NCBI GenBank assembly: GCA_021736975.1
Contig: JAIPET010000005.1
Coordinates: forward strand, 4,920-68,919
From: Candidatus Woesearchaeota archaeon
GTDB lineage: Archaea > Nanobdellota > Nanobdellia > Woesearchaeales > 21-14-0-10-32-9
Length of the DNA stretch: 64,000 bases
Reading direction: 5' to 3'
Shown here: piece by piece, positions 18,910 to 64,000 of the stretch
Position numbering within the stretch: the stretch's first letter is position 1
How the letters are laid out: each line of letters starts with the position of its first letter
The notes under the pieces: generated by a model
Told to the model about the DNA's origin: nothing
Seen by the model: only the letters and a program-made list of their open reading frames with translations
Databases searched by the model: none
Translations under genes and position numbers: made by a program

Positions 18910-18923
18910 AATATTAAAATAAA

Positions 18924-40583: not shown

Positions 40584-40696
40584 ATATCTAGGAAAGAACT
40601 TCTATTTATAAAGCTTATGGGTATATTTAAACATTAATTATTAAAATTTTAGTTATGTTGGAAAAATATATTAAGAACAAACCCTTTTTTTATTTT

Positions 40697-42700: not shown

Positions 42701-42739
42701 ATGAGTATATATTTTTAAGAATATTTAAAAGGTTTAACA

Positions 42740-44212
42740 ATGATTAAAATAAAAAAAATATTTAATGACTGGATGACAAAATTAGGAATTCCAACATCGG
42801 GATTCGGATTTGATTTTATAAAAAATACAGGATGGATATTTGGAGCAAAAATTTTAGAAAGTATAATTTCTTATATCATAATAGTATTAATCAGTAATAA
42901 TTTAGGCGCGGAAGGCTTAGGACAATATTCTTTTCTTTTTAGTTTTGTAGGTTTATTTTTTATATTTGCAGATATGGGATTATCCGAATTAATGGTAAAA
43001 AATTTATCGAAAAACTTTAACAAAGCAAAATTTTATGTGTCTAATATTTTTTCGCTAAAAATAATATTTTCGATAGCTTCTTTCATTGTTTACTTTATTG
43101 CTTTGTTTTTTATTAATAAAGATGCGTTATTTGTTGCTTTTATTTTTGTAGGTATTGTTCAAATTACAACTAATTTACAATATGTTTTTCTTTCAATTTT
43201 ACGAATTAAACAAAAAGGTAAGGCGATTGCTATAACGAATATAGTTGAAAGAGTTCTTGTTGTAATTGCAGCAATAATAATTTTACCAACAACAAAAGAT
43301 TTAACACTATTTATAGGATTTTTAATGGTTGCACAATTAATAAAATCAGTAATTATTTATTTATATAGTAAATCATTTTTTAAATTAAAATTGTCTTTTA
43401 ATTTATCTAGTTTTAAAGATTTTATTAAACAAGGATTTCCATTTCTTTTAATAGGTATTTTTAGTGCTGTTTATGTTCAATTAGATACTATTATGCTTTC
43501 ATTTATGAAGGGAGATGTTATTGTTGGTTTTTATCAAGCAGGATATAAATTAATTAATATGTTAAATTTAATACCGGGCATGTTGTTATTGTTTGGATTT
43601 CCTATGTTTTCAAGATTAATTCATAAAAATAAATCGTCTGCAAGAAAATTACTTGAAAAAATGTTACAAGGATTACTAATTTTAATAATTCCAGTTGTTG
43701 TTGCTGTTTTTTTAATTGGAAATAGACTTTTAGAATTTATTTACAATTTTAATTCTATAGAGAGTTTCATATCTTTTAAAATTTTAATTATTGCAGAAAT
43801 ATTTATAATTTTATCAATGATTTTAGGCAGTTTTATTTCTTCTAATAAACCAAAAGTTTTTGCAAAACTCGCTGCGTTTGGAGCAGGATTAAATATATTA
43901 TTGAATTTCTTACTAATACCAAAATATTCTCTTTATGGAGCGGGTATAGCGACACTCATAACATATTTGATGTTGTTTTTATTGATGTATTTTTATATTG
44001 AGAAAAAAATGTTATCATTTAATTTTTGGAAATATTGTGTGGTTCCAATCATTTCATCATTAGTAATGTTCTTTGTTTTGATGTTTAATTTGAATTTGAA
44101 TTTAATTTTTATTGTTATTCTTGGTGTTATATTATATTCTGTTTCTTTAGGAGTATCATATTTTGCTTTTAATTTATTTCGACGCGAGAAAAAGATTAAA
44201 AAGGTCCAGTAA
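42740..44212 (+). CDS. Polysaccharide flippase (Wzx/MOP family)
   Basis: About 14 TM segments; LGAEGLGQYS, DTIML..M...VGFY and LIPKYSLYGAGIAT motifs. Confidence 0.92.
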   Translation: MIKIKKIFNDWMTKLGIPTSGFGFDFIKNTGWIFGAKILESIISYIIIVLISNNLGAEGLGQYSFLFSFVGLFFIFADMGLSELMVKNLSKNFNKAKFYVSNIFSLKIIFSIASFIVYFIALFFINKDALFVAFIFVGIVQITTNLQYVFLSILRIKQKGKAIAITNIVERVLVVIAAIIILPTTKDLTLFIGFLMVAQLIKSVIIYLYSKSFFKLKLSFNLSSFKDFIKQGFPFLLIGIFSAVYVQLDTIMLSFMKGDVIVGFYQAGYKLINMLNLIPGMLLLFGFPMFSRLIHKNKSSARKLLEKMLQGLLILIIPVVVAVFLIGNRLLEFIYNFNSIESFISFKILIIAEIFIILSMILGSFISSNKPKVFAKLAAFGAGLNILLNFLLIPKYSLYGAGIATLITYLMLFLLMYFYIEKKMLSFNFWKYCVVPIISSLVMFFVLMFNLNLNLIFIVILGVILYSVSLGVSYFAFNLFRREKKIKKVQ

Positions 44213-46232
44213 ATGATTTGTCCGGAATATCATGATGTTCATTTTCTTCCACATCTATTTTTTTATTAATATTCATTAAAACATAACAAGCATTGACAAT
44301 GTTGTTTTTATTTGGATAATAATATTTAGTAAGTCCTTTACTTGTTGGTGTTGGAATATCAGGTAAAGTGATTCTAATAGGTGCAGTCTTTAAATAAGAA
44401 AACATTTTTTCTGTAACTCTTGAAATTATTTCTCCAGCAAAACCTCCAGAATAATGTCCACTATCTAAAACAAGAAGTCTTCCAGTTTTTTTAACAGAAT
44501 CTAAGATTGTGTCTTCATCTAATGGTTTTAAAGTAATAACATTTATGTGTTCGATGTCAAATTCATTTTTTAAGCTGGATGTTGCTTTCATAGCTTCTAA
44601 GGTCATAATCGAAGTAGAAACGACAGTTATATCTTTGCCTTTTTTAATAATTTTACATTTTCCAATGTCTGTTTTGTAAATATTTTCAGGAACATAATCA
44701 ATTAAATTGTGAAGCCATCTGTGTTCAATATAAATAATACAATTATTATCTAATACACTAGAAATTAACAAACCTTTTGCATCGTTGGCATTTGTAGGCA
44801 TAACAACTTTTAAACCAGGTATGTGTGAAAATAAAGCTTGTAAATTTTGAGAATGCTGAGCACCCTGTCCCCAACCACGTCCAATAATCATTCTGATTGT
44901 CAAAGGAACTTTTAATTTGCCTTCGAACATATAACTAAATTTTGCTGCATTATTTATTATTTGATCTAATGAAAGCAAAGAAAAATCAAGTCTTTGATGA
45001 GTTAAAATGGGTCTTAAACCTAATAATGCTGCACCTATACACATACCAGTCAAACCGTTTTCAGATACAGGCATGTCTAAAACTCTATCTGCACCAAATT
45101 TTTTTCTCAAATTAGTTGTAGTTCCAAATATGCCTTTAGGATCTGGAACTCCTTCTCCAATAATAAAAACATTTTCATCAAAATCCATTATTTGTTCTGT
45201 AGCTTCTCTAATTGCTTCAGCATATTTTATGGTTCTATCTGTTTTTTTAGGATTTTCAAAATTGATATTTGAATCAGAATAAACATGTTTATTCAATTCC
45301 TCTTTTTTAGGAAATGAATCTTTTTTTGCTTTTTCAATAGATTTTTCAATAAGAAATTCACATTTTTTTTCATATTCTTCAATTTCTTTTTCAGATATTA
45401 AATTATCATTTAAACATCTATTTTTAATTAATTTCAAACCATCTTTTTTTTGCCATTCAGAAATTTCAGAATTTAATCTATAATTTAAGTGATCGTCAGG
45501 ACTAGGACCGCAATGTTCAACAAATCTATATGTTTTAACTTCCAAAAATCCTGGACCTAAACCTTTTTTTATGTGGGCAGTTAATTCTTTAGTTGCTAAA
45601 TATATATCATATGGGTCGTTAGATTCTACAGTAATGACTTTAAGACCGTGCGCTTTAGCAATTGAAGAAATTTCTCTTTTTGGTTGTCTTTCATTAATAG
45701 GAGTGTAAACTGAATAAAAATTATTTTCACAAATAAATAAAACTGGAAGTTTTTTTAAAGATGCAAAATTAATACTTTCGTGAAAGACACCTTCTTCTGT
45801 TGAGCCATCACCAAAAAAAACAGTGGATATTCTATTTTCTTTTTTGTAGTTTATACTAAATGCGGCGCCAGTAGCTAAAGGAATAACGCCGCCCACAATA
45901 GGTGTTGATGCGTAAAAATTAACATCTAAATCTATTAAATGCATAGAACCTCCACGACCACCACTACAACCTGTTTTTTTACCATAAATTTCAGAAAAAA
46001 ATTTATCTAAATTACCTCCTTTGGCGATGTAAGGTCCGTGTGATCTGTGTCCTGAAAAAACAATATCTTCAGTATTTAAAGCTTCACAAACACCTACTGC
46101 TGTTCCTTCTTGTCCAATTGTTAAATGAACAGGACAACGCATTTCTTGTTCAGAATATTTTTCTTGAATTTTTTCTTCAACTTTTCTTAAGAAAATGAAT
46201 TTTTTCAATAAGTTTTGAACATTATTTGTCAT
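44196..46232 (-). CDS. Fused 2-oxoacid dehydrogenase E1 alpha+beta-like ThDP enzyme
   Basis: HLTIGQE, HRSH, GDG...ENN ThDP motif, then DMPVSE, GAQHSQ and the transketolase-C domain. Confidence 0.9.
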   Translation of the reverse strand: MTNNVQNLLKKFIFLRKVEEKIQEKYSEQEMRCPVHLTIGQEGTAVGVCEALNTEDIVFSGHRSHGPYIAKGGNLDKFFSEIYGKKTGCSGGRGGSMHLIDLDVNFYASTPIVGGVIPLATGAAFSINYKKENRISTVFFGDGSTEEGVFHESINFASLKKLPVLFICENNFYSVYTPINERQPKREISSIAKAHGLKVITVESNDPYDIYLATKELTAHIKKGLGPGFLEVKTYRFVEHCGPSPDDHLNYRLNSEISEWQKKDGLKLIKNRCLNDNLISEKEIEEYEKKCEFLIEKSIEKAKKDSFPKKEELNKHVYSDSNINFENPKKTDRTIKYAEAIREATEQIMDFDENVFIIGEGVPDPKGIFGTTTNLRKKFGADRVLDMPVSENGLTGMCIGAALLGLRPILTHQRLDFSLLSLDQIINNAAKFSYMFEGKLKVPLTIRMIIGRGWGQGAQHSQNLQALFSHIPGLKVVMPTNANDAKGLLISSVLDNNCIIYIEHRWLHNLIDYVPENIYKTDIGKCKIIKKGKDITVVSTSIMTLEAMKATSSLKNEFDIEHINVITLKPLDEDTILDSVKKTGRLLVLDSGHYSGGFAGEIISRVTEKMFSYLKTAPIRITLPDIPTPTSKGLTKYYYPNKNNIVNACYVLMNINKKIDVEENEHHDIPDKSFTGPF

Positions 46233-46284
46233 ATGAACATTGATGGATGAAAACATTTAAAAATATTGTCATATTCTACGAATT

Positions 46285-47274
46285 GTGAGATTTGAAAAAA
46301 TATTTATTACTGGAGGGGCGGGTTATGTAGGAAGTTTACTTGTTCCTTCGTTGCTTAAAAAAGGATATTCTGTAGTTGTATATGATTTATACATTTATGA
46401 GTATAAATTCGATGAACACCCAAATTTAACTCAAATTAAAGGAGATATAAGAAATAGAGAAAAAATGATTGAAGCATCAAAGAATTGTGATGCATTTATA
46501 CACTTAGCTTGCATTTCTAACGATCCAAGTTTCGATTTAAACCCTGATTTAGGAAAATCAATAAATTTTGATGCTTTTCAAATTGTTATAGATGCTTGTA
46601 AATTAAATAATATAAAAAGATTAGTTGTTGCTAGTTCTACAAGTCAATATGGTATAAAACCTCTGAATGTTGATGTTACAGAAGATATAGAAGCAGAACC
46701 AATAACAGATTATGCTAAATATAAGATAGAATGCGAAAAACTGCTAAATCAAACAGATGTTCAGGATATGGAATACGTGTTTGTTAGACCTGCTACACTA
46801 TGCGGATATGCTCCTCGTCTAAGATTAGATTTATCGGTTAATATATTGACAATAAATGCTCTAGTAAATAAAAAAATAAAAATATTTGGCGGAGATCAAA
46901 TGAGACCTGCTTTAAATATAAAAGACATGGTAAGATTTTATGAATTAATGCTAGAAATTGAAGGAGAAAAAATTCACAAACAAGCATTCAATGTTTCTTA
47001 TGCAAATAAAACAATAAAAGAAATAGCTCAAGAAGTAAAAGATACATTAAATGATAAAGAAGTTGTTTTTGAAGTACTTCCATCATCAGATAAAAGATCA
47101 TATCATGTTAATACAAATAAAATGAAATTGATGTTGAATTTTGAATGTAAATATGATTTTATAGATGCAATACTTTCAATAAAAGAAGCATACGAAAAAG
47201 GTTTAATAGTAAATGGTTTAGAAAATTCGTTTTATCATAATATAAAAAGAATGAAAGAAGTTGATTTAAAATGA
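46285..47274 (+). CDS. NAD-dependent nucleotide-sugar epimerase/dehydratase (extended SDR)
   Basis: TGGAGYVG, ISNDPS and YAKYK motifs. Confidence 0.88.
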   Translation: MRFEKIFITGGAGYVGSLLVPSLLKKGYSVVVYDLYIYEYKFDEHPNLTQIKGDIRNREKMIEASKNCDAFIHLACISNDPSFDLNPDLGKSINFDAFQIVIDACKLNNIKRLVVASSTSQYGIKPLNVDVTEDIEAEPITDYAKYKIECEKLLNQTDVQDMEYVFVRPATLCGYAPRLRLDLSVNILTINALVNKKIKIFGGDQMRPALNIKDMVRFYELMLEIEGEKIHKQAFNVSYANKTIKEIAQEVKDTLNDKEVVFEVLPSSDKRSYHVNTNKMKLMLNFECKYDFIDAILSIKEAYEKGLIVNGLENSFYHNIKRMKEVDLK

Positions 47275-48260
47275 GCAAAGTTGTTGTTATTGGAAGTAAT
47301 TCTTTTTCTGGAAGTAACTTTATTTCCCATTTAATAAAAAATTCAAAATATGATATTGTTGGAATAAGTAGATCTGCTGAAAAATCAGATGTTTTTCTTA
47401 CATATAAAAAACAACCTTTAGAAAGATTTACATTTCACCAATTAGACTTAAATAAAGACATAAAAAAAATATTAGACTTATTAGATGAATTACAACCAGA
47501 ATATATTGTAAATTTTGCTTCTCAAAGCATGGTTGGACAAAGTTGGGATCATCCTGATCATTGGTATAAAACTAATGTGTTATCCATAGTACATTTAGTT
47601 AATGCACTAAAAGAAAAAAAATATTTAAAGAAATATGTTCATGTTTCAACACCAGAAGTATATGGTAGTTGTTCAGGTTCTGTTAATGAATCACATCCTC
47701 ACAATCCAAGTACACCATATGCGGGTTCTCGAGCTGCTGCTGATGATTTTATTCAAATGCTTATAAAACAATTTAATTTTCCCGCAGTGTTTACAAGAGC
47801 TGCTAATGTTTATGGTCCAGGGCAACAATTATTTAAGATAATTCCTAGATCAATAATTTACATGAAATTAGGGAAAAAAATTCCTTTACATGGTGGTGGA
47901 TTTGCAAGAAGATCATTTATTCATATTGATGATGTGGCTGTTGCTACAAAAAAAATTATGGAGTGTGCAAAACCAGGCGAAATTTATCATTTATCCACGC
48001 CACAACTTATATCTATTAAGGATATTGTTGGTTTAATTGCAAAACATCTAAATTTGAAATTTTCTGAAGTTGTTGAAGACGTCGAAACAAGGAGAGGACT
48101 TGATGATGCGTATATTCTTGATTCATCTAAAGCGAAAAAAGAGTTTGATTGGGAAGCAAAAGTTTCACTTGAAGAAGGTTTAAGTGATGTAATTAAATGG
48201 GTTGAAGACTATTGGGACATTATTTCTAAAGAACAATTAGAATATGTTCACGAGGAATAA
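47271..48260 (+). CDS. NDP-sugar 4,6-dehydratase-like extended SDR
   Basis: GSNSFSG variant Rossmann motif, STPEVYG, PYAGSR and NVYGPGQ. Confidence 0.85.
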   Translation: MSKVVVIGSNSFSGSNFISHLIKNSKYDIVGISRSAEKSDVFLTYKKQPLERFTFHQLDLNKDIKKILDLLDELQPEYIVNFASQSMVGQSWDHPDHWYKTNVLSIVHLVNALKEKKYLKKYVHVSTPEVYGSCSGSVNESHPHNPSTPYAGSRAAADDFIQMLIKQFNFPAVFTRAANVYGPGQQLFKIIPRSIIYMKLGKKIPLHGGGFARRSFIHIDDVAVATKKIMECAKPGEIYHLSTPQLISIKDIVGLIAKHLNLKFSEVVEDVETRRGLDDAYILDSSKAKKEFDWEAKVSLEEGLSDVIKWVEDYWDIISKEQLEYVHEE

Positions 48261-48263
48261 AAA

Positions 48264-49454
48264 ATGAATGATATTAAATATACTGTGCGAGTTGCTTGCG
48301 GTGTTTGTGAAATGCCTTTTTCTAAACCAGTTATGTATCTTCCAAAATTTCCTTTAACAGAACTATTTGTTAATGAAAAACCTGAAAAGTTATCAGGTTA
48401 TCTCGATCAAGAATTTCATATTTGTTCTAATTGCGGTCATGGTCAATTATCAAATGTAATTGCTCCTGAACAATTATATTCTCCTTCTGCATATTTTTTT
48501 AGAACATCTACCAGTACTTCTGCTTCAAAATGTAATGATTTTTTTTTATCATTTATTAAAAAAGTTGTTGATAATAAAAAGTTTATTTCTGCAGTCGAAA
48601 TTGGATGTAGTGATCTTTATTTGCTCAAACAATTATCTTTTTGTACTCAAAAATTTATAGGAATAGATCCTATATTAAAAGGTAAAGAAAAAGAATTTTC
48701 TGAAGAAAATGTTTTTGTATATGGTGATTTATATGAACATATTGCAGAAGATATTTCATTAAAAGATTCTTTAGTTATTAGTAGTCATACTGTTGAGCAT
48801 ATTGAAAATCCTAAAAAAATGTTTAAGAAAATGATTGAGAAATCATCTGATGAAACCGTTTTTATTCATCAATTTCCAAGTCTCGAATATTTAATAGATG
48901 ATGCTCGTTTTGATCAAGTATTTCATCAACATTTAAACTATTTTTCTCTTAATTCTGTAAAATATATGCTTAATGAAATAGGTGCCGAGCTTGTTGATTA
49001 CACTTTTAATCCTAGACACTGGGGCTCATTACTTATTGCTTTTAAAAAATCAAAAAAGCAAAATATTTTGTCAAAAACAGATTTAATAAATTATGGTTTA
49101 ATCAGAGCTAAAAAAGAACATGCTCATTTTTGCAATATTATGAATTTTACAAAAGATCAACTTGAGCAAATAAAAAGTCCTGTATATATTTTTGGTGCAG
49201 CACTAATGTTACCTATATTGAGTTATTATCTTAAAAATGATTTTTCCTTAATAATTGCTATTGTTGATGATGATTCAAGTAAAAAAGGAAGATATTATAT
49301 TAATTTAAAAACACAAATTATTAATACAAGTGATATTTCTTCATTTGAGGACGCAGTGATACTTTTAGGCATTTTAAATCATTCAAGAAGAGTGATGAAA
49401 AGAATTATTGAATTAAATCCTAAAAAAATAATTATACCAATACAAACGATGTGA
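48264..49454 (+). CDS. NDP-sugar C-methyltransferase-like protein
   Basis: N-terminal CxxC...CxxCGH Zn site, EIGCSD, HTVEH, FDQVFHQHLNYFS and C-terminal FGAA domain. Confidence 0.78.
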   Translation: MNDIKYTVRVACGVCEMPFSKPVMYLPKFPLTELFVNEKPEKLSGYLDQEFHICSNCGHGQLSNVIAPEQLYSPSAYFFRTSTSTSASKCNDFFLSFIKKVVDNKKFISAVEIGCSDLYLLKQLSFCTQKFIGIDPILKGKEKEFSEENVFVYGDLYEHIAEDISLKDSLVISSHTVEHIENPKKMFKKMIEKSSDETVFIHQFPSLEYLIDDARFDQVFHQHLNYFSLNSVKYMLNEIGAELVDYTFNPRHWGSLLIAFKKSKKQNILSKTDLINYGLIRAKKEHAHFCNIMNFTKDQLEQIKSPVYIFGAALMLPILSYYLKNDFSLIIAIVDDDSSKKGRYYINLKTQIINTSDISSFEDAVILLGILNHSRRVMKRIIELNPKKIIIPIQTM

Positions 49455-49458
49455 TGAT

Positions 49459-50238
49459 ATGAATTTAGAACTTAAAGGGAAAAAAGCTTTAATAACTGGT
49501 GCTGGAAGAGGTCTTGGTGCATCAATAGCAATAAATCTCGCAAAAGAAGGAGTTCAAGTTGCAATTATTTCTCGTTCAAAAAGTGATTTAAATCTTCTTA
49601 TTAAAAAAATGGATGGCGAAGGTCATTATGCTTTTGAATGCGATCTTTTAGAAGAAAATTCTGCTAAAACAGTTGTTGAGGACATTCAAAAAAACTTTGG
49701 AAATGTTGAAATTCTTATCAATAATGTTGGTGGAACATTAAATATAAAAGATCCTTTTTGTTCTATTGAAGATTGGAGAAAAGTATGGAAACTTAATATG
49801 GAAACAACTATTGAATTTACTAATTTACTTTCTCCTCATATGATAAATCAATCTTGGGGAAGAATTGTGAATATATCTTCAATTTCATCATTAGAAAATC
49901 AAGGTCCTGTAACTTATTGTTCTGTTAAAGCAGCTCTTACTGCATATACTAGAAGTATGGGTCGTGTTCTCTCAGCAAAAGGAGTTGTTATGACATCTGT
50001 GTTACCTGGTGCGGTATTTACAGAAGGAGGATATTGGGATATTACTTCAAAAAAAGATCCAGAACATGTAAAAAAATATCTTTCTGAACGAATGTCAATA
50101 GGACGATTTGGAAAAGTGGATGAAATAGGATCTGTTGTTACTTTTCTTTGTTCGAATCAAGCTTCTTTTTTTGTAGGATCAGCAATTCTTGTAGATGGTG
50201 GACAAGGAAAATGTTTTAATGACGGAACGAGGAATTAA
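49459..50238 (+). CDS. Classical SDR oxidoreductase
   Basis: TGAGRGLG, NNVG and YCSVK motifs. Confidence 0.9.
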   Translation: MNLELKGKKALITGAGRGLGASIAINLAKEGVQVAIISRSKSDLNLLIKKMDGEGHYAFECDLLEENSAKTVVEDIQKNFGNVEILINNVGGTLNIKDPFCSIEDWRKVWKLNMETTIEFTNLLSPHMINQSWGRIVNISSISSLENQGPVTYCSVKAALTAYTRSMGRVLSAKGVVMTSVLPGAVFTEGGYWDITSKKDPEHVKKYLSERMSIGRFGKVDEIGSVVTFLCSNQASFFVGSAILVDGGQGKCFNDGTRN

Positions 50239-50240
50239 CT

Positions 50241-51973: not shown

Positions 51974-51974
51974 A

Positions 51975-52877: not shown

Positions 52878-52890
52878 TATAATATTTAAA

Positions 52891-53715
52891 ATGAAACAAA
52901 AAAACTATTATAATTACAAAAATGATGTTTTTGTTATTTTTGGCGGTGCAAAAGATATAGGTATGTGTATTGCAAAAAGTTTCTTTGATTCAGGTGCAAA
53001 AGTTATTGTTGTAGATATTGAACCTATTGAGTCTGAATTTTTTTTTTTTTATCAAGCTGATTTAACAAATGAATCAGATGTAAAAAAACTTGTTGAAAAA
53101 ATTCTTCTTAAATATAAAAAAATAGATGTTTTAATTAATAATGTGCGTGGAAAAAGATTTAAAAGTGATGATGCTTTGGATTTTTCATTAGATGTTTGGA
53201 TGAATAGTTTAAGTACTATTTTGGGAGGTTCGTATATTGTTGCAAAATACTTTATTCCAGTTATGATAAAACAAAAAAAAGGAGTTATTTTAAATTTAGC
53301 ATCTATATCTGGAAATCTTATAGGAGATGAAGATATCAGTTATCACGTTGCAAAGGCAGGGTTAATACAATTCACAAAATATATTTCCACTAAATATGGA
53401 AAATTCAATATACGTGCAAATTGTATATCTCCAGGATTCATAGTGAAAGATCAAAATTTAGAAAGATTTAACAATAAAGAAAATGATGATTATAAAAAAA
53501 CAGCACTCTTATCACATCCTTTAAGAAGAATTGGTGTTGTAGATGATGTGGCTAAAGCAGCATTGTTTTTGTGCTCAGATGATGCATCATTTATTACAGG
53601 TCAAGATTTTATTGTTGATGGGGGTTTAACAAATAATGATCCTTGGGCATTAGCAAATAATATTAGAAATTATTTAAATAATCCAAATAAGGAGCGAGTT
53701 TATGACAGTAAATAA
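52891..53715 (+). CDS. Classical SDR oxidoreductase
   Basis: GGAKDIG, YHVAK, IRANCISPG and ITGQ..VDGG motifs. Confidence 0.9.
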   Translation: MKQKNYYNYKNDVFVIFGGAKDIGMCIAKSFFDSGAKVIVVDIEPIESEFFFFYQADLTNESDVKKLVEKILLKYKKIDVLINNVRGKRFKSDDALDFSLDVWMNSLSTILGGSYIVAKYFIPVMIKQKKGVILNLASISGNLIGDEDISYHVAKAGLIQFTKYISTKYGKFNIRANCISPGFIVKDQNLERFNNKENDDYKKTALLSHPLRRIGVVDDVAKAALFLCSDDASFITGQDFIVDGGLTNNDPWALANNIRNYLNNPNKERVYDSK

Positions 53716-54604
53716 AAATTCAATTTTAGGCGTTCTTGATTTATCTAAACACACAAAACTAGGAGAATTATTAATTTTTATTGAGAATATTAAGATTAAA
53801 AAAAACACATCTACATTTAAAAATATAGATGTTGCCATTTTGAGTGATGATAAAACTAAATTGTTTACTGTTCAATTACCTATATTATATAATTATCTTA
53901 AAATTAATACTTGTTTTTTATTTGAATCAAAAAATATTTTTAAAGAATTTATTAATAAACACAAAACAGAATATTATAATATATATCCCTCTACAATAAA
54001 TTATGTTGAGCAGGAAAATCCACTAGATTCAACATTTGAATCTAGAAATTTTTTTAAAAAGAAAAACAAAATTCCTTATTTAAGCTCTCTTTCAAAAAAA
54101 TTCAGTTCTACAAATATGTCCTTAACTAAGCAGTTAAAAAATAATTATTCAGTTGTTGTTCATCTTAAAAATTCAACATCCAAACATAAAGAAAGTGATG
54201 CTATTCAAAATGAATGGTTTGCTTTTTTTGATTATTTTAAATCAGAAAATATTTTATTTTTTTTGATAGGTGCTGATGATATCATTGACAAAATAAAGAA
54301 ATTATCTAATATTATAATAACAAGAGATATAGGATTAAATATTGTGGATGATTTAATCTTAATTGAACATGCAGATTTATTTATGGGTATGTGTAGCGGC
54401 CCATTTCAAATAGCTTTGTTTAACAAAAAACCTTACATTGTTTTTAAAAATCCTGATCATCATAAAGAAGAGATGAAAAAGGAAATTGGTGATAAAAATA
54501 AATATATTTTTGCAGCTAACAATCAAAATATTTATAGAGAAGTTGAGTCATTTAACTCTTTGAAAAACAAATTTAGCGCAGTATATAAAAAGGTGCATCG
54601 ATGA
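53702..54604 (+). CDS. Putative GT-B glycosyltransferase-like protein (GT9-like C-terminus)
   Basis: LGE near the N-terminus, VVVHLK, and DLILIEHADLFMGMCSGP...ALF.KKP. Confidence 0.55.
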   Translation: MTVNKNSILGVLDLSKHTKLGELLIFIENIKIKKNTSTFKNIDVAILSDDKTKLFTVQLPILYNYLKINTCFLFESKNIFKEFINKHKTEYYNIYPSTINYVEQENPLDSTFESRNFFKKKNKIPYLSSLSKKFSSTNMSLTKQLKNNYSVVVHLKNSTSKHKESDAIQNEWFAFFDYFKSENILFFLIGADDIIDKIKKLSNIIITRDIGLNIVDDLILIEHADLFMGMCSGPFQIALFNKKPYIVFKNPDHHKEEMKKEIGDKNKYIFAANNQNIYREVESFNSLKNKFSAVYKKVHR

Positions 54605-55599
54605 AATACTCTAAATTATCAAATACAAACATATCTGTGTCAAAACTTTGTCTTGGATGTGCAAATTTTGGAGAAAGAACAGACTATGAAGAAGCTGAAA
54701 AAATAGTTTTAGCAGCTATGAAAAATGGAATAAATTTTTTTGATACTGCAAATGTTTATCCTAATCAAGGTCTAGAAGGAAGATCTGAAAGAATTCTTGG
54801 AAAGATTATAAAAAAACATAATCTTAGAGATAAAATTATTCTAGCAACAAAAGTTAGAGCTAGGATGAGTTCTAAAAAAGGAGATTCAGGTCTTAAAAAA
54901 AAACATATTCTTGAGCAAATCAAAGGTTCTTTAGATAGATTACAAACTTCTTTTGTTGATATTTACCAATTCCACAGACCTGATGATGATGTTCCTGTAA
55001 TTGAGCAATTATCTGCTATTGATCTTTTGGTAAAAAAAAATTTAGTGCATTTTCATGGTTTATCTTCGTTTGTTTCTTGGAAATTAGTTGAACAAATCTT
55101 GATTTCCAAAGCAAATAATTTTCAGAAAATAGTTTCTTTACAAGAAAAATATAATTTATTAGATCGTCAATTAGAATCTCAAATAATAGATATTTGTAAA
55201 AAATATGACATTTCCATTTTAGCATATAGTCCTCTTGAAGGAGGGTTATTGTCTGGAAAATATGATTTAAATAATCCTTCTCCAAAAAATGCAAGACACA
55301 CTATTTGGAAAAAAGATTTCACTTCAGAAGAGAACCTAGTTTTATTAACTAAAGCAGATCTTTTAAAAAAAATGGCTCAGGAAAAAGGGATTACTTTAGT
55401 ACAATTATCTATTGCATGGATTTTACAAAATAAGGCAATAACTTCTTGTATTATAGGTCCAAGAAACATCGATCAGTTTAATGAATATGTTTCTGCACTA
55501 AAAATAAATTTAACTGACGAGGACTTACAAAGAATTGATGATATTTGTCCGCCTCTTTATGCAAAGAAAATATCAAAAAATAGTATGTTTAGAAAATAA
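54601..55599 (+). CDS. Aldo/keto reductase
   Basis: LCLGC, FFDTANVY, LATK, DIYQFH and YSPLEGGLLSGKY motifs. Confidence 0.93.
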   Translation: MKYSKLSNTNISVSKLCLGCANFGERTDYEEAEKIVLAAMKNGINFFDTANVYPNQGLEGRSERILGKIIKKHNLRDKIILATKVRARMSSKKGDSGLKKKHILEQIKGSLDRLQTSFVDIYQFHRPDDDVPVIEQLSAIDLLVKKNLVHFHGLSSFVSWKLVEQILISKANNFQKIVSLQEKYNLLDRQLESQIIDICKKYDISILAYSPLEGGLLSGKYDLNNPSPKNARHTIWKKDFTSEENLVLLTKADLLKKMAQEKGITLVQLSIAWILQNKAITSCIIGPRNIDQFNEYVSALKINLTDEDLQRIDDICPPLYAKKISKNSMFRK

Positions 55600-55612
55600 T
55601 TTGGTTGAAAAA

Positions 55613-56659
55613 ATGAAATTAATAAGTTTTTTTAAAAAAGCATTCATATTTTTAAGAGTTCATATAACTTTAAGAATATTCAGATTTTTATGGTCAATTC
55701 GTTTTTTGGTTATGAATTTATTTAATATTAAAAAAGACGCAATTATAGGTGTGTGGGATTTTTCTTGTGGTACAATGGGTGATGCGTTGCTATTTCATGA
55801 AATTCTAGCATGTTTAAAAGAAGAATTTGCTCCTGGAAAAAATAATGTTGAAGTTTGTTTCATTCATGATGAAACTCAAGATAAAAATGTTTATTCTGAT
55901 AATTGGAAAAAGATGATTTCTGATACAGTTCATTTTAATAAATATTTAGGAAAAATTCATAATTTTAATTCCTATGACGAATTTAGAAATTATTTGAATT
56001 CTTCTAAAAAAAGTTATGTTGTTTGGCCTTCAAAAAATGGATTTGTATTTCCTTATGATATGAATATCATTATTAGATTTTTTTCATTATTTAAACGAAT
56101 TCCTTCTTTTAGTTCACCTAAAAATATTTCAGATAAAGTTGGTGTTTTTTTAAAAGAACAAATATATCCTGCTCTACCTATAGTTGTTTCTTTAAGAAAT
56201 CTTAAATCAAGACATAATCATAGAAATTCAGATATATCTGTATTATATCACTTTTTTAAACATTTTAAATCTGATGATCGCTATAAATTCATAATTATTT
56301 GTTCAAAAGAAGAAGTTGATGATTCATTAAGATTGAATAATGTCTTATTTTCAAAAGATTATTTTAAGTCAATTCAAGAAGATTATGTTATTATACAAAA
56401 ATCATATGCAGGTATTTTTCCAACCTCAGGACCTGCTATTATTGCTTATTTTGACGGAATTCCATTTATACAATACGGTTTTGATATGAATAATACTAAT
56501 CATAGTCCTGTATTATCAATCTCTAGAAGTAAAAAATTTGTTTTTTTAAATCATAATCAGCGAATTTTTTGGAAAAAAGAAGAACTAACTTGGTTATTGG
56601 AAGAGTTCGATAAATTATTAAAGGATATTGAACAATATAATAAAAAGGTGAAAAAATGA
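55613..56659 (+). CDS. Putative GT-B glycosyltransferase-like protein, distant paralogue of 53702-54604
   Basis: GVWDF..MGDALLF, VVSLRN and EDY.II...SGP...AYF.GIP in the same order as its paralogue. Confidence 0.5.
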   Translation: MKLISFFKKAFIFLRVHITLRIFRFLWSIRFLVMNLFNIKKDAIIGVWDFSCGTMGDALLFHEILACLKEEFAPGKNNVEVCFIHDETQDKNVYSDNWKKMISDTVHFNKYLGKIHNFNSYDEFRNYLNSSKKSYVVWPSKNGFVFPYDMNIIIRFFSLFKRIPSFSSPKNISDKVGVFLKEQIYPALPIVVSLRNLKSRHNHRNSDISVLYHFFKHFKSDDRYKFIIICSKEEVDDSLRLNNVLFSKDYFKSIQEDYVIIQKSYAGIFPTSGPAIIAYFDGIPFIQYGFDMNNTNHSPVLSISRSKKFVFLNHNQRIFWKKEELTWLLEEFDKLLKDIEQYNKKVKK

Positions 56660-57312
56660 CAGAAATTAATTTATTGGAGAAATATCCAAAAACTAAACGT
56701 GATCTTAAAGCGCGTGGTGAAGAAAAAACTGATGAAATTCGTTCAGTAGCAAGAAAGTTTGAAAAAGATTTTTTTGATGGTGATAGAAAGTATGGTTATG
56801 GTGGGTTTACATATAACTCAAGATTCTGGAGTGAAGTAGTAAAAGATTTTATTAATTATTATGATCTTCAACCGGGAAATAAAATTTTTGATATTGGTTC
56901 CGCAAAAGGGTTTATGCTTTATGATTTGAATCAAGCAATGCCTGAACTTATTTTAAAAGGTATTGATATTAGTAATTATGCTGTTGCGCACACTATCAAG
57001 GGCGTTAGAGAGTTTAACTTCGTCGGTGACGTTCGAGATTTAAGCATGTATAAAGATGATGAGTTTGATTTAGTTATTTGTATAAATACAGTTCATAATT
57101 TGCCTATTGATGAATGCAAACGTGCTATTTCTGAAATTCAGCGTATTGGAAAACATGCATTTATTACTATGGATGCTTGGAATACAGATGAAGAAAAAGA
57201 AGCTATGATGGCTTGGAATCTTACAGCAAAAACAATGATGAGTGTTTTAGATTGGAAAAAACTTTTTGATGAAGTTGGTTACAAAGGTGATTATTATTGG
57301 TTTATGCCATAA
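56656..57312 (+). CDS. Class I SAM-dependent methyltransferase
   Basis: FDIGSAKGF, GIDIS and FDLVICINTVHNL motifs. Confidence 0.88.
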   Translation: MTEINLLEKYPKTKRDLKARGEEKTDEIRSVARKFEKDFFDGDRKYGYGGFTYNSRFWSEVVKDFINYYDLQPGNKIFDIGSAKGFMLYDLNQAMPELILKGIDISNYAVAHTIKGVREFNFVGDVRDLSMYKDDEFDLVICINTVHNLPIDECKRAISEIQRIGKHAFITMDAWNTDEEKEAMMAWNLTAKTMMSVLDWKKLFDEVGYKGDYYWFMP

Positions 57313-57322
57313 GGAGTGATTT

Positions 57323-58363
57323 ATGAAAACTAAAGGCGCAGTTTTATATGAAACTAATGCAAATCTTGTTATAGATACTCTTGAAATTCCAAAACTTCAG
57401 CTAGGACAAGTGTTAGTTAAAATTATTTGTAGTGGTATTTGCAGGTCTCAAATTCATGAAATCGAAGCCCATAAAGGTCCTGATAACTATCTTCCTCATT
57501 TATTGGGGCATGAAGCAGTAGGTGTGGTTGAAAAAGTGAGTAGCAACGTTTCTAAGGTTTCTATCGGCGATAAGGTTGTTTTAACATGGATTAAAGGAAC
57601 AGGATGTGATGTTTCTGGTTCAACTTATATTGATTCTGAAGGCGTTTCTATTAATTCAGGTGCAATAACAACATTTAGTAATTATGCAGTTTTAAGTGAA
57701 AATAGGTTGGTAAAAATTCCTGAATCAGTTCCTGATTCTATTGCGCCTTTATTTGGTTGTGCAATTCCTACAGGTGTGGGTATTATTCAAAACGAACTTG
57801 ATGTTCAAGAAGGACAATCTATTGCAATTTTTGGCGTTGGTGGTGTTGGATCTGCTGCTTTATTAGGTGCAGTTGCAAGAAAAGCAAAGAATATCATAGC
57901 AGTTGATATTAATGATGAAAAGCTTAATATAGCAAAAGAACTAGGCGCAACACATGTTATTAATATTCGAGAAAATGTTCTTGATATTATTAAAAAAATA
58001 ACAATGGATAAATATCTTGATTTTGCAGTTGATTGTTCTGGAAATATAGCTACTATGGAACTCGCATTTAAATCTATTAATGACAAAGGCACTCTTGTTA
58101 TTGCTGGAAATCCTAAAAAAGGAGAAACTATTTCCATTGTTCCTTTTGATCTTATTAAAGGAAAAAGAATTATTGGTAGTTGGGGAGGTTCTACGAACCC
58201 TGATAAAGATATACCTCTTTATATTAAACAATATCTTGATGGTGATCTTCATGTTGAACTTTTAAAAACTAAAATTTATTCTCTTGAGGACATCAATGAG
58301 GCTATAGTTTCATTCAAAAAGGGAGATTTTTCAAGAGTTTTATTAGATTGTTCAACAAAGTAA
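57323..58363 (+). CDS. Zn-dependent (MDR) alcohol dehydrogenase
   Basis: GICRSQ, GHEAVG, GCAIPTG and GVGGVG motifs; lacks the structural-Zn lobe. Confidence 0.9.
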   Translation: MKTKGAVLYETNANLVIDTLEIPKLQLGQVLVKIICSGICRSQIHEIEAHKGPDNYLPHLLGHEAVGVVEKVSSNVSKVSIGDKVVLTWIKGTGCDVSGSTYIDSEGVSINSGAITTFSNYAVLSENRLVKIPESVPDSIAPLFGCAIPTGVGIIQNELDVQEGQSIAIFGVGGVGSAALLGAVARKAKNIIAVDINDEKLNIAKELGATHVINIRENVLDIIKKITMDKYLDFAVDCSGNIATMELAFKSINDKGTLVIAGNPKKGETISIVPFDLIKGKRIIGSWGGSTNPDKDIPLYIKQYLDGDLHVELLKTKIYSLEDINEAIVSFKKGDFSRVLLDCSTK

Positions 58364-58366
58364 TAC

Positions 58367-59431
58367 GTGCTTATTTTAAGAAAGTTTTATAAAATAACTT
58401 TAATTCATAAGAATGGTGTGGTTATTAAAAAACGATTTGCTGTGGATTTTGACAAAATTGTTGATGTTCTTGAGAATATTAAAGATTTAAACGTTCTGGT
58501 TATTGGAGATACTATTATTGATGAATATGTTTTTGCTAAACAAAAAGGCCGTGCTATTAAAGATCCTATTCTTTCAATGGAATATGTTAATCATGAAGTT
58601 TATGCTGGCGGAATTTATGCAACTGCTAATCATCTAAGTTCTTTTGTAAAAAACATTACATTAGTTACTTTACTTGGTGACAAAGAGACAAAAGAAGATT
58701 TTCTTAAATCACATGTTTCTAAAAATACGCGTGTTAAACATTTTTTTAAGAAAGATTCAGTAACTACTGTGAAAAAAAGATTTGTTGATTCTTATAGGGG
58801 AAATAAGTTATTTAAAATAGAACATATAACTGATGCCCCTATTTCAAATAGTCTTTCTAAAGAGATTGTTTCTTATCTTGAAGAAGAGCTTCCTAAATAT
58901 GATTTAGTTGTTGTTAATGATTTCGGTCACGGTTTTATTAATGAAGATATTCGTTCTGTTATTCAGAAAAAATCAAAATATTTAGCTATAAATGTTCAAT
59001 CAAATAGTGCAAATACAGGTTTTAATTATGTCACGCTTTATACTAAAGCTGATTTCATAACTATGAATGAAAGTGAAATTAGATTGCCTATGATGATGCG
59101 TTTTGAAGATATAGATGTGGTTATGAATAAGTTTAGTGAAAAATATTTTTTTGATAAGTTTATATTGACACTTGGTAAGAGGGGTTCTATTTATTATACT
59201 GCCGGAGAAACCTTTGCTTGTCCTGTAGTTATTGATACAATAGTTGATACTGTTGGTTCGGGCGATGCATTATTTGCCATATCTTCTTTATTTTCTTATT
59301 CAGGTGCTGATGGTTTTTTAATTTCATTTATTGGCAATGTTGCAGGTGGTATAAAAACTAATTATTTAGGTAATAAAGAATCTGTTTCAAAAAATAAACT
59401 TATTAAAGTGTCTAAGGAGTTGTTATTATGA
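58367..59431 (+). CDS. PfkB/ribokinase-family sugar-phosphate kinase (HldA/RfaE-I-like); start uncertain
   Basis: VLVIGDTIIDEY, DFGHG, NESE and DTVGSGD motifs. Confidence 0.88.
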   Translation: MLILRKFYKITLIHKNGVVIKKRFAVDFDKIVDVLENIKDLNVLVIGDTIIDEYVFAKQKGRAIKDPILSMEYVNHEVYAGGIYATANHLSSFVKNITLVTLLGDKETKEDFLKSHVSKNTRVKHFFKKDSVTTVKKRFVDSYRGNKLFKIEHITDAPISNSLSKEIVSYLEEELPKYDLVVVNDFGHGFINEDIRSVIQKKSKYLAINVQSNSANTGFNYVTLYTKADFITMNESEIRLPMMMRFEDIDVVMNKFSEKYFFDKFILTLGKRGSIYYTAGETFACPVVIDTIVDTVGSGDALFAISSLFSYSGADGFLISFIGNVAGGIKTNYLGNKESVSKNKLIKVSKELLL

Positions 59432-59979
59432 CTTTTGAAGAATATTCAAGTCAAATTAAATCAGAACTAGATAAACTAGTTTATGATGAAGAAATTCTTT
59501 TCACATTAAAAAATACTTTAAAAACCGGTAAAAAAATATTTATAGCAGGAAATGGCGGAAGTGCTTCTATTGCTAATCATTGCGCATGCGATTTTTCAAA
59601 AGGAGCAACATCTGATTGGAAAAATAATTTTAATAGATATAAAGTCATTTCTCTTTCAAGCAATTTAAGTTACATGACTGCAATTTCAAATGATGAAAAT
59701 TATACTGATGTTTTTAAACAACAATTAGTAAATTTAGCAGAAGAAGGAGATATTCTAATTCTTATTTCTTCTTCAGGTAATAGCCCTAATATTATTAATG
59801 CTTTAGAATATGCTAAGGAGATTGGCATGGTAAGTATAGGTATATGTGGTTTTGATGGAGGGCAGCTTAAAAAATCTGCTGATTTAATTGCTCATGTAAA
59901 TATGAATTCTTATGAAGTTTGTGAAGATGTTCATAGCATTTTCTGTCATTATATCACAATATGGTTAAGAAATAATTAA
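59428..59979 (+). CDS. gmhA: SIS-domain phosphoheptose isomerase (GmhA-like)
   Basis: GNGGSAS.A.H, TAISND, ISSSGNSPN and EDVH motifs. Confidence 0.88.
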   Translation: MTFEEYSSQIKSELDKLVYDEEILFTLKNTLKTGKKIFIAGNGGSASIANHCACDFSKGATSDWKNNFNRYKVISLSSNLSYMTAISNDENYTDVFKQQLVNLAEEGDILILISSSGNSPNIINALEYAKEIGMVSIGICGFDGGQLKKSADLIAHVNMNSYEVCEDVHSIFCHYITIWLRNN

Positions 59980-61046
59980 TTATTTTTTCCTATTTCTTTT
60001 ATTAGTTCATCATATTCTTTATTCGCATCTAAAAAAGTTGCTTTTAAATTGTCAGCGAGTAATTCATCATCTTTACTATCTCCTAGAACTATTATTTTGT
60101 CAAAATCATTTATTTTTTTATTAATTTCTTCTAATCCTTTAGACACCATTCTGATGCTTGGTTTTCTATCTGTTTTTTCTTTGATATGTTTATTTACCCA
60201 ATTTATTTCTGGTTTAGTTTTTGCATAATCATTGTCTACATCTGGGCAGTATTGCCAATTCAAAATAATTATATTTTTTGAAAGCAATTTATCATCAATA
60301 TTTTTATTTATTTCTTCAACTGTTTTGCAAGTAAAATATCCTCTCGCGACTCCTGCTTGATTAGAAATCACGATGTTAGTAGTTTTAAATTTTGTTTGTA
60401 AATATATTATTGTGTTGATAATATTTTCTTTTAATTTTAAATCTTTTTTCCAAGTTTTTTCTTTTCCAAAAAAACCACTATCTTCTATAAGAGTTCCATC
60501 CCTATCTATAAGAAGAAGAACGTCCTCGTTTTTTATATCGTTTTTTATATATTGAATTATTTTTGTAGTTGATAATGGTGGTTCAGTAGTATATTTCATT
60601 TCTCCTCCAATATCTTTTATTGCTTTTCTTTCAGAAATTATTCCAGGTGTTGTTTTATTTATAAAATCAGGTCCTTTAATATAATATGATGGTTTAAGTT
60701 CATGTATTATTTCAGTTCCTTTTTTAAATGGTGAAATAACAACATAATCAACTGATTGATGTGATGCGATGATATATGCTCTTAGTTTATCAGTATATAT
60801 TGGTCTTCCCAAACCTTTTCTAGAAGTAACAAATTCATCCGCTGTAACTGAAACAACTAAATAATCGCATTGAGATTTAGCAATTTCAAAATGTTTAAAG
60901 TGACCTGGGTGTGTAAGATCAAAACCTCCATGACACAACCCAATTTTTTTCCCTTGTTTTTTTAACAAATTTATTTTTTCACTGCATTTTTTTAAAGATA
61001 TTATTTTTTTTGAAGAATACAACTCTATATTTTCAACAGCTAACAT
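59976..61046 (-). CDS. Fusion of HldC/RfaE-II-like nucleotidyltransferase and GmhB-like HAD phosphatase
   Basis: N-terminal CHGGFDLTHPGH, KG.GRP, KGPD and STT; C-terminal IDRDGTL, SNQAGVARG, YCP, RKP and GDSKDD. Confidence 0.85.
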   Translation of the reverse strand: MLAVENIELYSSKKIISLKKCSEKINLLKKQGKKIGLCHGGFDLTHPGHFKHFEIAKSQCDYLVVSVTADEFVTSRKGLGRPIYTDKLRAYIIASHQSVDYVVISPFKKGTEIIHELKPSYYIKGPDFINKTTPGIISERKAIKDIGGEMKYTTEPPLSTTKIIQYIKNDIKNEDVLLLIDRDGTLIEDSGFFGKEKTWKKDLKLKENIINTIIYLQTKFKTTNIVISNQAGVARGYFTCKTVEEINKNIDDKLLSKNIIILNWQYCPDVDNDYAKTKPEINWVNKHIKEKTDRKPSIRMVSKGLEEINKKINDFDKIIVLGDSKDDELLADNLKATFLDANKEYDELIKEIGKNN

Positions 61047-62070: not shown

Positions 62071-62167
62071 TTTTTCACCTTTTTAATTTTATAAGTATTT
62101 TTTAATAATTGTATTTATGTTGCTTATGTTCTTGACATTATTAATTTTGTGTTTTCTAAGTCATTTT

Positions 62168-63998: not shown

Positions 63999-64000
63999 AC

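Follow-up and report, generated by a model that had tools for sequence, protein, structure and literature searches.

A modular gene cassette predicted to make a carbon-branched, methylated surface sugar in a genome-reduced woesearchaeal archaeon

Gene content of the cassette

We analysed a stretch of 64,000 nt (hereafter the window) from Candidatus Woesearchaeota archaeon, corresponding to positions 4,920-68,919, forward strand, of contig JAIPET010000005.1 (assembly GCA_021736975.1). Near its right end, 17 genes spanning ~17 kb (44196-61046) form a cassette that, judged by its gene content, is probably one copy of a modular cassette making a carbon-branched, methylated sugar from a nucleoside diphosphate (NDP)-heptose-type precursor for a surface glycan; we assign this reading a probability of about 0.6. 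An initial annotation of the same DNA, made from the letters and a list of open reading frames (ORFs), had delimited these genes and proposed family types for them. The ORF limits match exactly, and our Pfam and NCBIfam scans of the window ORFs, from which all family types given here derive, agree with the proposed families. The annotation's description of the host as a reduced archaeon is likewise borne out by the genome, which comprises 1.31 Mb in 47 contigs and is 98.3% complete, and by the leading 40 kb of the window, which carry genes of archaeal information processing (TBP, aIF2-beta, Cdc6, RadA, aRF1, both PolD subunits and an intein-bearing MCM). A search for sequencing runs listed three DNA runs from a single lake-water study, which may be the source sample, and no RNA data.

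The first and the last gene of the cassette lie on the reverse strand, and all those between them on the forward strand. The first (44196..46256) encodes a fused E1 alpha/beta protein of 686 amino acids, with domains PF00676, PF02779 and PF02780. It divergently adjoins two genes for extended short-chain dehydrogenases/reductases (SDRs), namely SDRe1 (46285..47274; PF01370), proposed to be an NDP-heptose dehydrogenase or a branch ketoreductase, and DH46 (47271..48260), an NDP-sugar 4,6-dehydratase-like SDR of a distinct subfamily. They are followed by a C-methyltransferase-like gene of the TcaB9/TylC3 type (CMT, 48264..49454) and by a classical SDR (SDRc1, 49459..50238; PF00106), a proposed ketoreductase that would partner CMT and the second thiamine diphosphate (ThDP) enzyme of the cassette. 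The latter is an atypical split transketolase, with an N-terminal, ThDP-binding subunit (50241..51020; PF00456, 125 bits) and a C-terminal (Pyr + C) subunit (51020..51973; PF02779 and PF02780). The next ORF, MTx (51891..52877), is weakly methyltransferase-like (PF13847, 23 bits, E 5e-5, below cut-off), and its translation probably begins at the in-frame ATG directly after the transketolase stop. Further along are a second classical SDR (SDRc2, 52891..53715; PF13561), an aldo-keto reductase (AKR, 54601..55599; PF00248, 229 bits), a methyltransferase using S-adenosylmethionine (MT218, 56656..57312; PF13847/PF13649/PF08241) and a Zn-dependent alcohol dehydrogenase (ZnADH, 57323..58363; PF00107 and PF08240), the last two being core cassette genes. 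U300 (53702..54604) and U374 (55535..56659), interspersed among them, and the activation genes at the right end are described below.

The closest solved relatives of CMT are TcaB9 (E 1.5e-12, residues 10-258), the mycarose 3-C-methyltransferase and another sugar 3-C-methyltransferase. The protein passes the cut-offs of PF08421 (33.4 bits) and PF13489 (38 bits), and PF08484 is matched at E 0.012. SDRe1 has structure 6VO6 as its closest solved relative (E 8.4e-32). The canonical catalytic residues of RmlB-type dehydratases are T-D-E and YxxxK. DH46, whose closest solved structures are dTDP-glucose 4,6-dehydratases (E 2.6e-44), scores 204 bits with TIGR01181 (cut-off 365) and belongs to a family with motifs GSNSFSG, S(S/T)PEVYG and YAxS(K/R); its catalytic region thus reads S/T-P-E and Y-x-x-x-(K/R), with the Tyr and the Glu kept and an Arg at the last position in the window.

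Four activation domains are encoded by three adjacent genes (58367-61046): a pfkB sugar-phosphate kinase resembling heptose-7-phosphate kinases (HepK, 58367..59431; PF00294), a GmhA-like SIS isomerase (59428..59979; PF13580) and, on the reverse strand, a fusion of an HldE-domain-II-like nucleotidyltransferase with a GmhB-like HAD-IIIA phosphatase (59976..61046), in which the HxGH and DRDGT motifs are visible. Models of the ADP-heptose pathway were the best NCBIfam matches in all four cases, always below the equivalog cut-off: 111.9 bits against 345 for the kinase (TIGR02198, rfaE domain I), 117.5 against 209.45 for the isomerase (TIGR00441), 101.3 against 181.5 for the nucleotidyltransferase domain (TIGR02199) and 49.7 against 178 for the phosphatase domain (GmhB model), which scored 44.7 against 44.6 with the HAD-IIIA model TIGR01662. 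The Arg before STT in such transferases has been linked to CDP/UDP promiscuity, according to a commentary on Tang et al. The transferase domain of the window ends in ...PPLSTT..., without this Arg, and its motif deviates at two more positions, so that we made no call on nucleotide specificity from it.

The initial annotation had also pointed out two glycosyltransferase-like paralogues. U300 and U374 are indeed paralogous (25% identity, E 3e-18), and neither has any Pfam match, including to the GT9 family (PF01075). A scan of 58 members of the U374 family returned no glycosyltransferase or other informative Pfam family, with one stray unrelated match in one member. A word-index search for U374 recovered 6 proteins, and an exhaustive profile search of 1.84 billion representatives recovered 853 relatives of its family at E <= 0.001. 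An AlphaFold model of U374, built from a 58-row alignment (mean predicted local distance difference test 88.8), displays two Rossmann-like domains, as in a GT-B fold, preceded by a long helix at the N terminus. The top Foldseek match of this model was the GT9 structure 3TOV (E 4.8e-9), and VIA-align Z scores were 18.0 for 3TOV, 17.8 for WaaF (1PSW) and 16.4-16.6 for WaaC; the UDP-GlcNAc 2-epimerases, as the next GT-B class that is unrelated, reached 13.6. Plant NDH subunits, which are presumably GT9-like proteins themselves, scored 15.3-16.7. The ESM Atlas gave a weak GT9 lead for U374 (30% of one cluster, score 0.92). These comparisons support the view that the predicted fold of U374 is nearest to GT9 heptosyltransferases, which fits a heptose-type donor, and we designate both proteins putative GT-B, GT9-like glycosyltransferases.

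Two thiamine-dependent enzymes

The E1 fusion is the sole strong E1_dh match in the genome. Searches for E2 (PF00198), lipoyl (PF00364), E3 (PF02852) and lipoate/biotin ligase (PF03099) families, each of which recovers 10-14 of 14 control genomes, returned no match in this 98.3%-complete genome. The absence of E2 and E3, previously noted for the window, therefore extends to the whole genome, and no E2 or E3 encoded elsewhere was found in the assembled 98%. With all four families unmatched, the fused alpha/beta protein cannot, on this gene content, serve in a 2-oxo acid dehydrogenase complex. The best NCBIfam matches of the fusion are the pyruvate dehydrogenase (PDH) E1 alpha and beta models, both below cut-off (286 bits with TIGR03182, cut-off 394; 298.5 bits with NF006667, cut-off 321), and human PDH E1 beta aligns to it at E 4e-60. 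An alignment of 18 family members indicated that the GDG...ENN ThDP motif and the QHS motif of the beta subunit, containing its active-site His, are invariant. The QHS motif is also present in human PDH E1 beta and is equally compatible with both roles.

Among 8000 candidates scored, 5306 relatives of similar length were found at E <= 0.001, the best 120 being 45-55% identical to the fusion; named relatives come from Woesearchaeota (the closest), marine Synechococcus, Magnetococcales, Akkermansiaceae and others. To place the E1 in context we used a scan seeded with it, one genome per species, which gave 568 relatives among 599 candidate stretches, of which the best 80 loci were kept. E1 relatives in these sugar loci are 45-68% identical to the fusion, and the neighbours SDRe1 and DH46 recur in 58/80 and 62/80 of them. 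The initial annotation named AviB1/AviB2 (eurekanate) as E1-type pairs that branch sugars. As outlined in the available text of PMC12247030, E1-type enzymes designated alphaKADH2 put acetyl branches on keto sugars of aldgamycin, kosinostatin, kibdelomycin and related antibiotics, with about 120 known gene clusters and one enzyme, KbDH, assayed in vitro. In the window, too, the ThDP motif is intact, the E1 has no E2/E3 partner and its gene lies in a nucleotide-sugar cluster beside keto-sugar-forming SDRs. We propose that this orphan E1 is an alphaKADH2-type enzyme that installs a C2 (acetyl) branch.

The initial annotation had suggested looking for a housekeeping transketolase elsewhere in the genome. 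We located a second, canonical split transketolase on contig C45, beside a ribulose-phosphate 3-epimerase gene; since it has this neighbour and scores higher with PF00456 (190 bits vs 125 for the cassette copy), the C45 copy is the housekeeping one. Its two halves are interrupted by NUDIX hydrolase and isochorismatase-family genes, with the epimerase upstream (C45:8366-13653). We therefore regard the cassette enzyme as a second, atypical copy, which on its sequence would be neither the housekeeping pentose-phosphate enzyme nor the supplier of sedoheptulose-7-phosphate.

The N subunit of the cassette transketolase has 6YAK as its best relative in the PDB (E 2.3e-56). Its GDG..NEG, GH, LSKGH, GHPD and WHH motifs align with those of 6YAK and of the housekeeping copy, and it carries a 5-residue deletion after the DNN motif. 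The cassette enzyme retains its catalytic His residues and metal/ThDP motif, along with the Glu that activates thiamine. We compared C subunits in an alignment of the window protein, its orthologues from loci L007, L043, L063 and L071 and the housekeeping copy, with 6YAJ brought in by way of the PDB search. All five residues of interest are present in 6YAJ and in the housekeeping copy: an Arg, a Ser, a His and an Arg that bind phosphate and an Asp that contacts the acceptor hydroxyl. We take these positions to be R358, S385, H461, R520 and D469, respectively, in E. coli numbering. In the window protein the first Arg alone is kept, and Phe, Ser, Leu and Glu stand in place of the Ser, the His, the Asp and the last Arg, respectively. 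The four orthologues follow the same pattern at the Ser, His and Asp positions, whereas the last position varies among them (Glu, Ala, Lys or Arg).

Clustering of all ORFs in 81 sources (the window and the 80 loci; at least 33% identity and at least 70% coverage) revealed a gene slot occupied by the transketolase in 6 sources, by a YerE/ALS-type thiamine enzyme in 25 and by both in none. The C-methyltransferase occurs in 10/81 sources, in 4 with a transketolase, in 6 with a YerE-type enzyme and in none with neither. The whole genome of the window has no match to the YerE/ALS-type family (PF02776). Because the phosphate-binding residues are lost and the gene slot is shared with YerE-like enzymes, we read the cassette transketolase as filling the role of a YerE-like carboligase.

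A modular cassette family and its genomic setting

The cassette is not special to this archaeon: in our synteny searches its core (the E1, the two NDP-sugar SDRs, a methyltransferase, ZnADH, the kinase and the isomerase) came up again in 80 genome loci from many phyla. Loci from Sneathiella glossodoripedis JCM 23214, Pseudodesulfovibrio karagichevae 9FUS and Lusitaniella coriacea LEGE 07167 are among those fetched. In tblastn comparisons with the window proteins (at least 50% coverage, E <= 1e-10), homologues of HepK were present in 48 of the 80 E1-seeded loci, of MT218 in 41 (with ~50% identity), of ZnADH in 27, of the GmhA-like isomerase in 20, of the C-methyltransferase in 18, of SDRc1 in 16 and of the transketolase N subunit in 5. 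SDRe1 is the gene with the tightest linkage to the E1; by ORF clustering it is found in 60/81 sources, mostly as the gene immediately before those for the E1. The E1 is split into two genes in 70/80 loci and fused in 5 sources, including the window; in bacterial loci it is the kinase and the nucleotidyltransferase that are fused (512 amino acids). A B12-radical-SAM enzyme occurs in 12 loci. A common gene order is kinase-transferase, isomerase, DH46, SDRe1, E1 alpha, E1 beta, SDR, methyltransferase, YerE-like enzyme, MT218 and Zn-dependent alcohol dehydrogenase, with ZnADH usually directly after MT218.

We also scanned metagenomes, seeding with an alignment of five cassette-type transketolase C subunits. 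This gave 425 relatives among 595 candidate stretches; 80 were kept, of which 36 are long loci (at least 8 kb). All 36 long loci contain the N subunit, and most contain SDRc1 (28, median identity 57%), the C-methyltransferase (25) and MT218 (24). DH46 and ZnADH are found in 19 each, SDRe1 in 18, the E1 in 17, a U300 homologue in 14 (directly after the transketolase), an FkbM-type methyltransferase in 13, the AKR in 11, SDRc2 in 10 and a YerE-type enzyme in 2. These two, L122 and L123, are the only loci among the 36 in which the atypical transketolase coexists with a YerE/ALS-type enzyme. Loci L115, L124, L136 and L150 share the order SDRe1, (E1), DH46, CMT, SDRc1, two transketolase genes, U300, SDRc2, AKR, MT218 and Zn-dependent alcohol dehydrogenase, so that SDRc2 lies after the transketolase in all of them, and MTx homologues were identified in L045, L051, L054, L071 and L124. 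L136 resembles the window almost gene for gene, with identities of 68% for the E1, 72% for SDRe1, 70% for DH46, 68-69% for the transketolase subunits and 58% for the transferase/phosphatase fusion. That the cassette genes recur side by side in 80 loci from genomes and 36 long loci from metagenomes indicates that their grouping is not by chance and, as far as gene content tells, the cassette is a modular family found in many bacterial phyla and in several lineages of archaea.

Within the phylum of the host, a survey of 301 sampled genomes gave E1-like matches at E <= 1e-50 in 56, mostly at 34-40% identity and over the beta part only; identities of at least 50%, on separate alpha or beta segments, were limited to four (G011, G097, G186 and G023). 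None of the four other genomes of the same family that were searched, including one of the same genus, has an E1 match, indicating that the cassette is a variable island and not a fixed trait of the lineage. These four genomes contain a housekeeping-type transketolase C subunit only (26-31% identity). In a FastTree phylogeny of E1 beta, the window sequence grouped with 9 archaeal rows and one kin genome (support 89), and this group was nested among bacterial rows. This support is below the starred level of the tool, and we claim no direction of transfer from the tree. The 301-genome tally and one row of the tree include an unpublished genome (G243), and nothing rests on it. The G+C content is 0.25-0.30 in cassette and flanks alike, so that base composition gives no sign of a recent transfer of the cassette.

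The flanks had been described as a flippase on one side and NeuAB on the other, which agrees with what we found. Upstream, on the forward strand (40655..44212), are genes for a GDP-mannose 4,6-dehydratase (TIGR01472, 597 bits, above cut-off), a GDP-L-fucose synthase (NF047922, 326 bits, below the cut-off of 500) and a Wzx-type flippase (PF01943). Downstream, on the reverse strand (61189..64000), are a NeuB-type synthase (PF03102), a CMP-transferase fused to a KdsC-type phosphatase (PF02348 and TIGR01670) and a glycosyl/glycerophosphotransferase-like gene (PF04464) that extends beyond the window end. The glycan island then runs to the end of the contig, with an acyltransferase gene followed by a GT2 gene. 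The NeuB-type synthase is short (293 amino acids) and the NeuB Pfam domain is the sole domain matched; the phosphatase fusion, of KdsC/Kdn-9-P type, scores 135.5 bits with NF058599 (cut-off 180). Both genes (61189-63313) may belong to a Kdn- or sialic-acid-like pathway proceeding through a phosphorylated intermediate. An Rfam scan of the window had a single match, a lone 5S rRNA gene (40469-40584) at the left boundary of the glycan island; no riboswitch was matched close to the cassette.

Several features were observed in the remainder of the window. The first 2 kb have a G+C content of 0.43 and an AT skew of 0.53, compared with ~0.27 G+C for the rest, and a 951-aa ORF (409-3264) has a Peptidase_S74 domain (endosialidase intramolecular chaperone) at its end; its product could be a fibre-like surface protein or be virus-derived. 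Overlapping genes for a HepT-like RNase and an MNT-type nucleotidyltransferase (3801-4686) look like a toxin-antitoxin module. The MCM helicase gene (4766-8179) is split by an intein with a LAGLIDADG homing-endonuclease domain, and two patatin-like phospholipase genes lie in tandem at 29222-30818. Directly beside cdc6/orc1 (16179-17417), a gene-free region of 1.5 kb (17417-18924; G+C 0.18) contains four tandem 39-nt units at 18345-18500, reported by the tool as three overlapping 78-nt copies, and further direct repeats. This region is a candidate replication origin.

Predicted product and comparison with known systems

The route that we propose for the cassette product is inferred at every step. 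Sedoheptulose-7-phosphate would be supplied by the housekeeping transketolase on the other contig and converted into an NDP-heptose by the four activation domains (GmhA-like isomerase, pfkB kinase, GmhB-like phosphatase and HldE-type nucleotidyltransferase). SDRe1, DH46 or both would then introduce a ring keto group. On its ThDP, the E1 would decarboxylate pyruvate and transfer the two-carbon unit to the keto carbon, leaving an acetyl branch on a tertiary alcohol, as with alphaKADH2 enzymes, and the TcaB9-type enzyme would C-methylate the position beside the keto group. The atypical split transketolase would form a second thiamine-dependent C-C bond in a YerE-like role, probably by transfer of a hydroxyacetyl group. 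The two classical SDRs, the AKR and the Zn-dependent alcohol dehydrogenase would reduce ring and side-chain ketones, and the methyltransferases would O-methylate the sugar. Finally, the GT9-like paralogues would transfer the product, and the neighbouring Wzx flippase would export the glycan unit. The closest solved relatives of CMT, DH46, SDRe1 and U374 agree with the steps assigned to them here.

Several points weigh against this proposal. The order of the tailoring steps and the choice of the branched carbon are guesses, and all members of the family are known from their genes alone, with product and activity predicted. The term heptose is a family-level assignment, because all four activation enzymes fall below equivalog cut-offs, and another ketose phosphate is possible as the substrate. 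The closest solved relative of SDRe1, 6VO6, is presumed to be Cj1427, the GDP-heptose C4-dehydrogenase. The residues lost from the transketolase also bind the phosphate of its normal donors, which bears on the identity of the donor, and the mutual exclusion of transketolase and YerE-type enzymes is not absolute, as both occur in 2/36 long loci. Most E1 loci lack a transketolase. Conversely, L115 has the entire transketolase block and no E1, which indicates that the E1 can occur without the second thiamine module and vice versa; on this evidence the two modules are separable, and their enzymes need not act on the same sugar. The likeness of the E1 to alphaKADH2 enzymes is one of architecture and context. 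Lastly, no oligosaccharyltransferase or S-layer gene was seen within the window.

This separability of the modules leads to the most serious competing explanation, which we consider improbable but worth keeping in view: the cassette would make at least two sugars, the E1 and the transketolase each branching a separate NDP-sugar, for instance a 4-keto-heptose and a 6-deoxy-4-keto-heptose, to give two singly branched residues. The presence of 45 E1-bearing sources out of 76 without a second ThDP enzyme, the L115 block, the two keto-forming SDRs (SDRe1 and DH46) and the two GT9-like paralogues would all fit, but the genes form one tight operon with a single activation gene set, and 17 of the 36 long transketolase loci have the E1 within the same block. 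We regard as distinctly unlikely that the chain is extended before activation, with the transketolase, the E1 or both building an octulose or nonulose phosphate that the isomerase, kinase, phosphatase and nucleotidyltransferase would then activate. There is a precedent in the lincosamide octose pathway, where chain extension is followed by GmhA-type activation; in addition, the activation enzymes of the window are divergent, scoring under the heptose equivalog cut-offs, and transketolase products are 1-hydroxy-2-ketoses usable by a GmhA-type isomerase. However, the cassette transketolase lacks three of four sugar-phosphate-binding residues as well as the acceptor Asp, it is flanked by a keto-sugar C-methyltransferase and an SDR, and activation genes occur without any transketolase in most cassettes. 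It is also interchangeable with YerE-like enzymes, which use NDP-keto sugars in the available text of PMC9306805.

Slightly less probable still is a non-sugar product, either a substituent or a small metabolite for secretion (an acyloin, a diol or a cyclitol-like aglycone, for example), attached to the heptose or independent of it. For a single sugar, a set of four reductases and as many as three methyltransferases is large, and E1-type enzymes can form free acyloins. Nevertheless, the closest solved relatives of the methyltransferase and of both extended SDRs are nucleotide-sugar enzymes, the cassette is flanked by the flippase and other glycan genes, and no carrier protein, cyclase or exporter besides Wzx was seen. 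By far the least probable is that the E1 fusion is an ordinary pyruvate, branched-chain or acetoin dehydrogenase E1 lying beside sugar genes by chance. Its resemblance to PDH E1 models and to human PDH E1 beta is what would be expected in that case, but E2, lipoyl, E3 and lipoate-ligase families are unmatched in the genome, the E1 is missing from the four same-family genomes and, in all 80 loci fetched, its relatives lie in sugar loci (by construction of the search) with recurrent sugar partners.

We therefore retain a carbon-branched, methylated surface sugar as the best reading. This part of the product proposed in the initial annotation stands, on the strength of the orphan E1, the atypical transketolase and the heptose-type activation genes. 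Its other parts do not: a chain-extended sugar is disfavoured by the missing sugar-phosphate-binding residues and by the YerE-like slot of the transketolase in related loci, and no cyclase-type gene was found that would make a carbocyclic sugar. A more specific version, which we put forward tentatively and hold to be doubtful, is that the product is a single novel heptose bearing an acetyl or hydroxyethyl branch made by the E1, a hydroxyacetyl or dihydroxyethyl branch made by the transketolase and a C-methyl group, with a skeleton of ~12 carbons and the Pfam-less GT9-like family as its dedicated transferase. If this were true, the atypical transketolase would be the first with a nucleotide-linked keto sugar as its natural acceptor in primary cell-surface glycan synthesis, and the sugar would be a surface determinant, widespread yet unseen, of hundreds of uncultured bacteria and DPANN archaea.

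More generally, the cassette predicts an unseen class of surface sugar, and its family constitutes a large natural set of candidates for the idea that split transketolases branch keto sugars. It also carries a warning for annotation, as 'pyruvate dehydrogenase E1' or 'transketolase' calls in such loci of tiny genomes should not be taken to denote energy or pentose-phosphate metabolism. The initial annotation recognized no characterized pathway with this gene set; we found no description of the cassette or of its product either in the literature searched, which took in few subscription journals, and the DPANN literature retrieved by our searches does not mention heptose. As far as searched, then, the enzyme chemistries have precedents, while the cassette, the heptose-type substrate, the transketolase subfamily and the transferase family are undescribed.

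The E1 shares with alphaKADH2 enzymes, as the available text of PMC12247030 presents them, an E1 alpha/beta with a ThDP motif, the lack of E2/E3, a location beside NDP-keto-sugar genes and an expected C2 branch derived from pyruvate. It differs in being fused (the genes are split in 70/80 related loci), in its DPANN host, in belonging to a surface-glycan island instead of an antibiotic cluster and in its predicted substrate, a heptose-type sugar in place of a deoxyhexose or pentose. In the same source, lipopolysaccharide is served by YerE-like enzymes, thiamine-dependent branching is otherwise documented for antibiotic pathways, and the transketolase type is reported as never shown in vitro. 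For YerE, ErwE and MyGE, the available text of PMC9306805 gives a scheme for branched sugars of lipopolysaccharide in which a thiamine-dependent acyl addition to an NDP-4-keto sugar is followed by SDR reduction. The YerE/YerF (yersiniose A), ErwE and MyGE systems are thus alike in combining carboligation and an SDR for a surface glycan, and 25 sister cassettes have a YerE-like gene in the slot of the transketolase; by contrast, the window genome has no YerE/ALS-type enzyme, and there the slot holds a split transketolase whose donor is probably not pyruvate.

Split-gene transketolases have been proposed, with function pending, for the hydroxyacetyl branch of miharamycin and amipurimycin (PMC12247030, available text). 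As in the window, these are two-gene transketolases in a sugar-tailoring cluster with a presumed keto-sugar acceptor. The 13 candidates listed there are all from Streptomycetes, whereas the subfamily described here is spread across metagenomes (425/595 stretches) and resides in surface-glycan cassettes. In Campylobacter jejuni, where Cj1427 is a GDP-heptose C4-dehydrogenase, the capsular heptose pathway likewise oxidizes an NDP-heptose at C4 or 4,6-dehydrates it before SDR tailoring, its enzymes including epimerases and reductases; it makes GDP-alpha-heptose with another kinase/transferase set and, in the available text, has no thiamine enzymes and no C-methyltransferase (PMC10680097), in contrast to the HldE/GmhB-like activation of the window. 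The ADP-heptose pathway (GmhA, HldE and GmhB) with its GT9 transferases (WaaC and WaaF) uses the same four activation families and the same transferase fold (Z 16.5-18), but the enzymes of the window fall below equivalog cut-offs, with the kinase alone, the nucleotidyltransferase fused to the phosphatase and glycosyltransferases without a Pfam GT9 match. Set beside these systems, the cassette family appears to bring together both antibiotic-type thiamine enzymes in a cassette for surface glycans, one that many uncultured bacteria carry and that occurs also in genome-reduced archaea.

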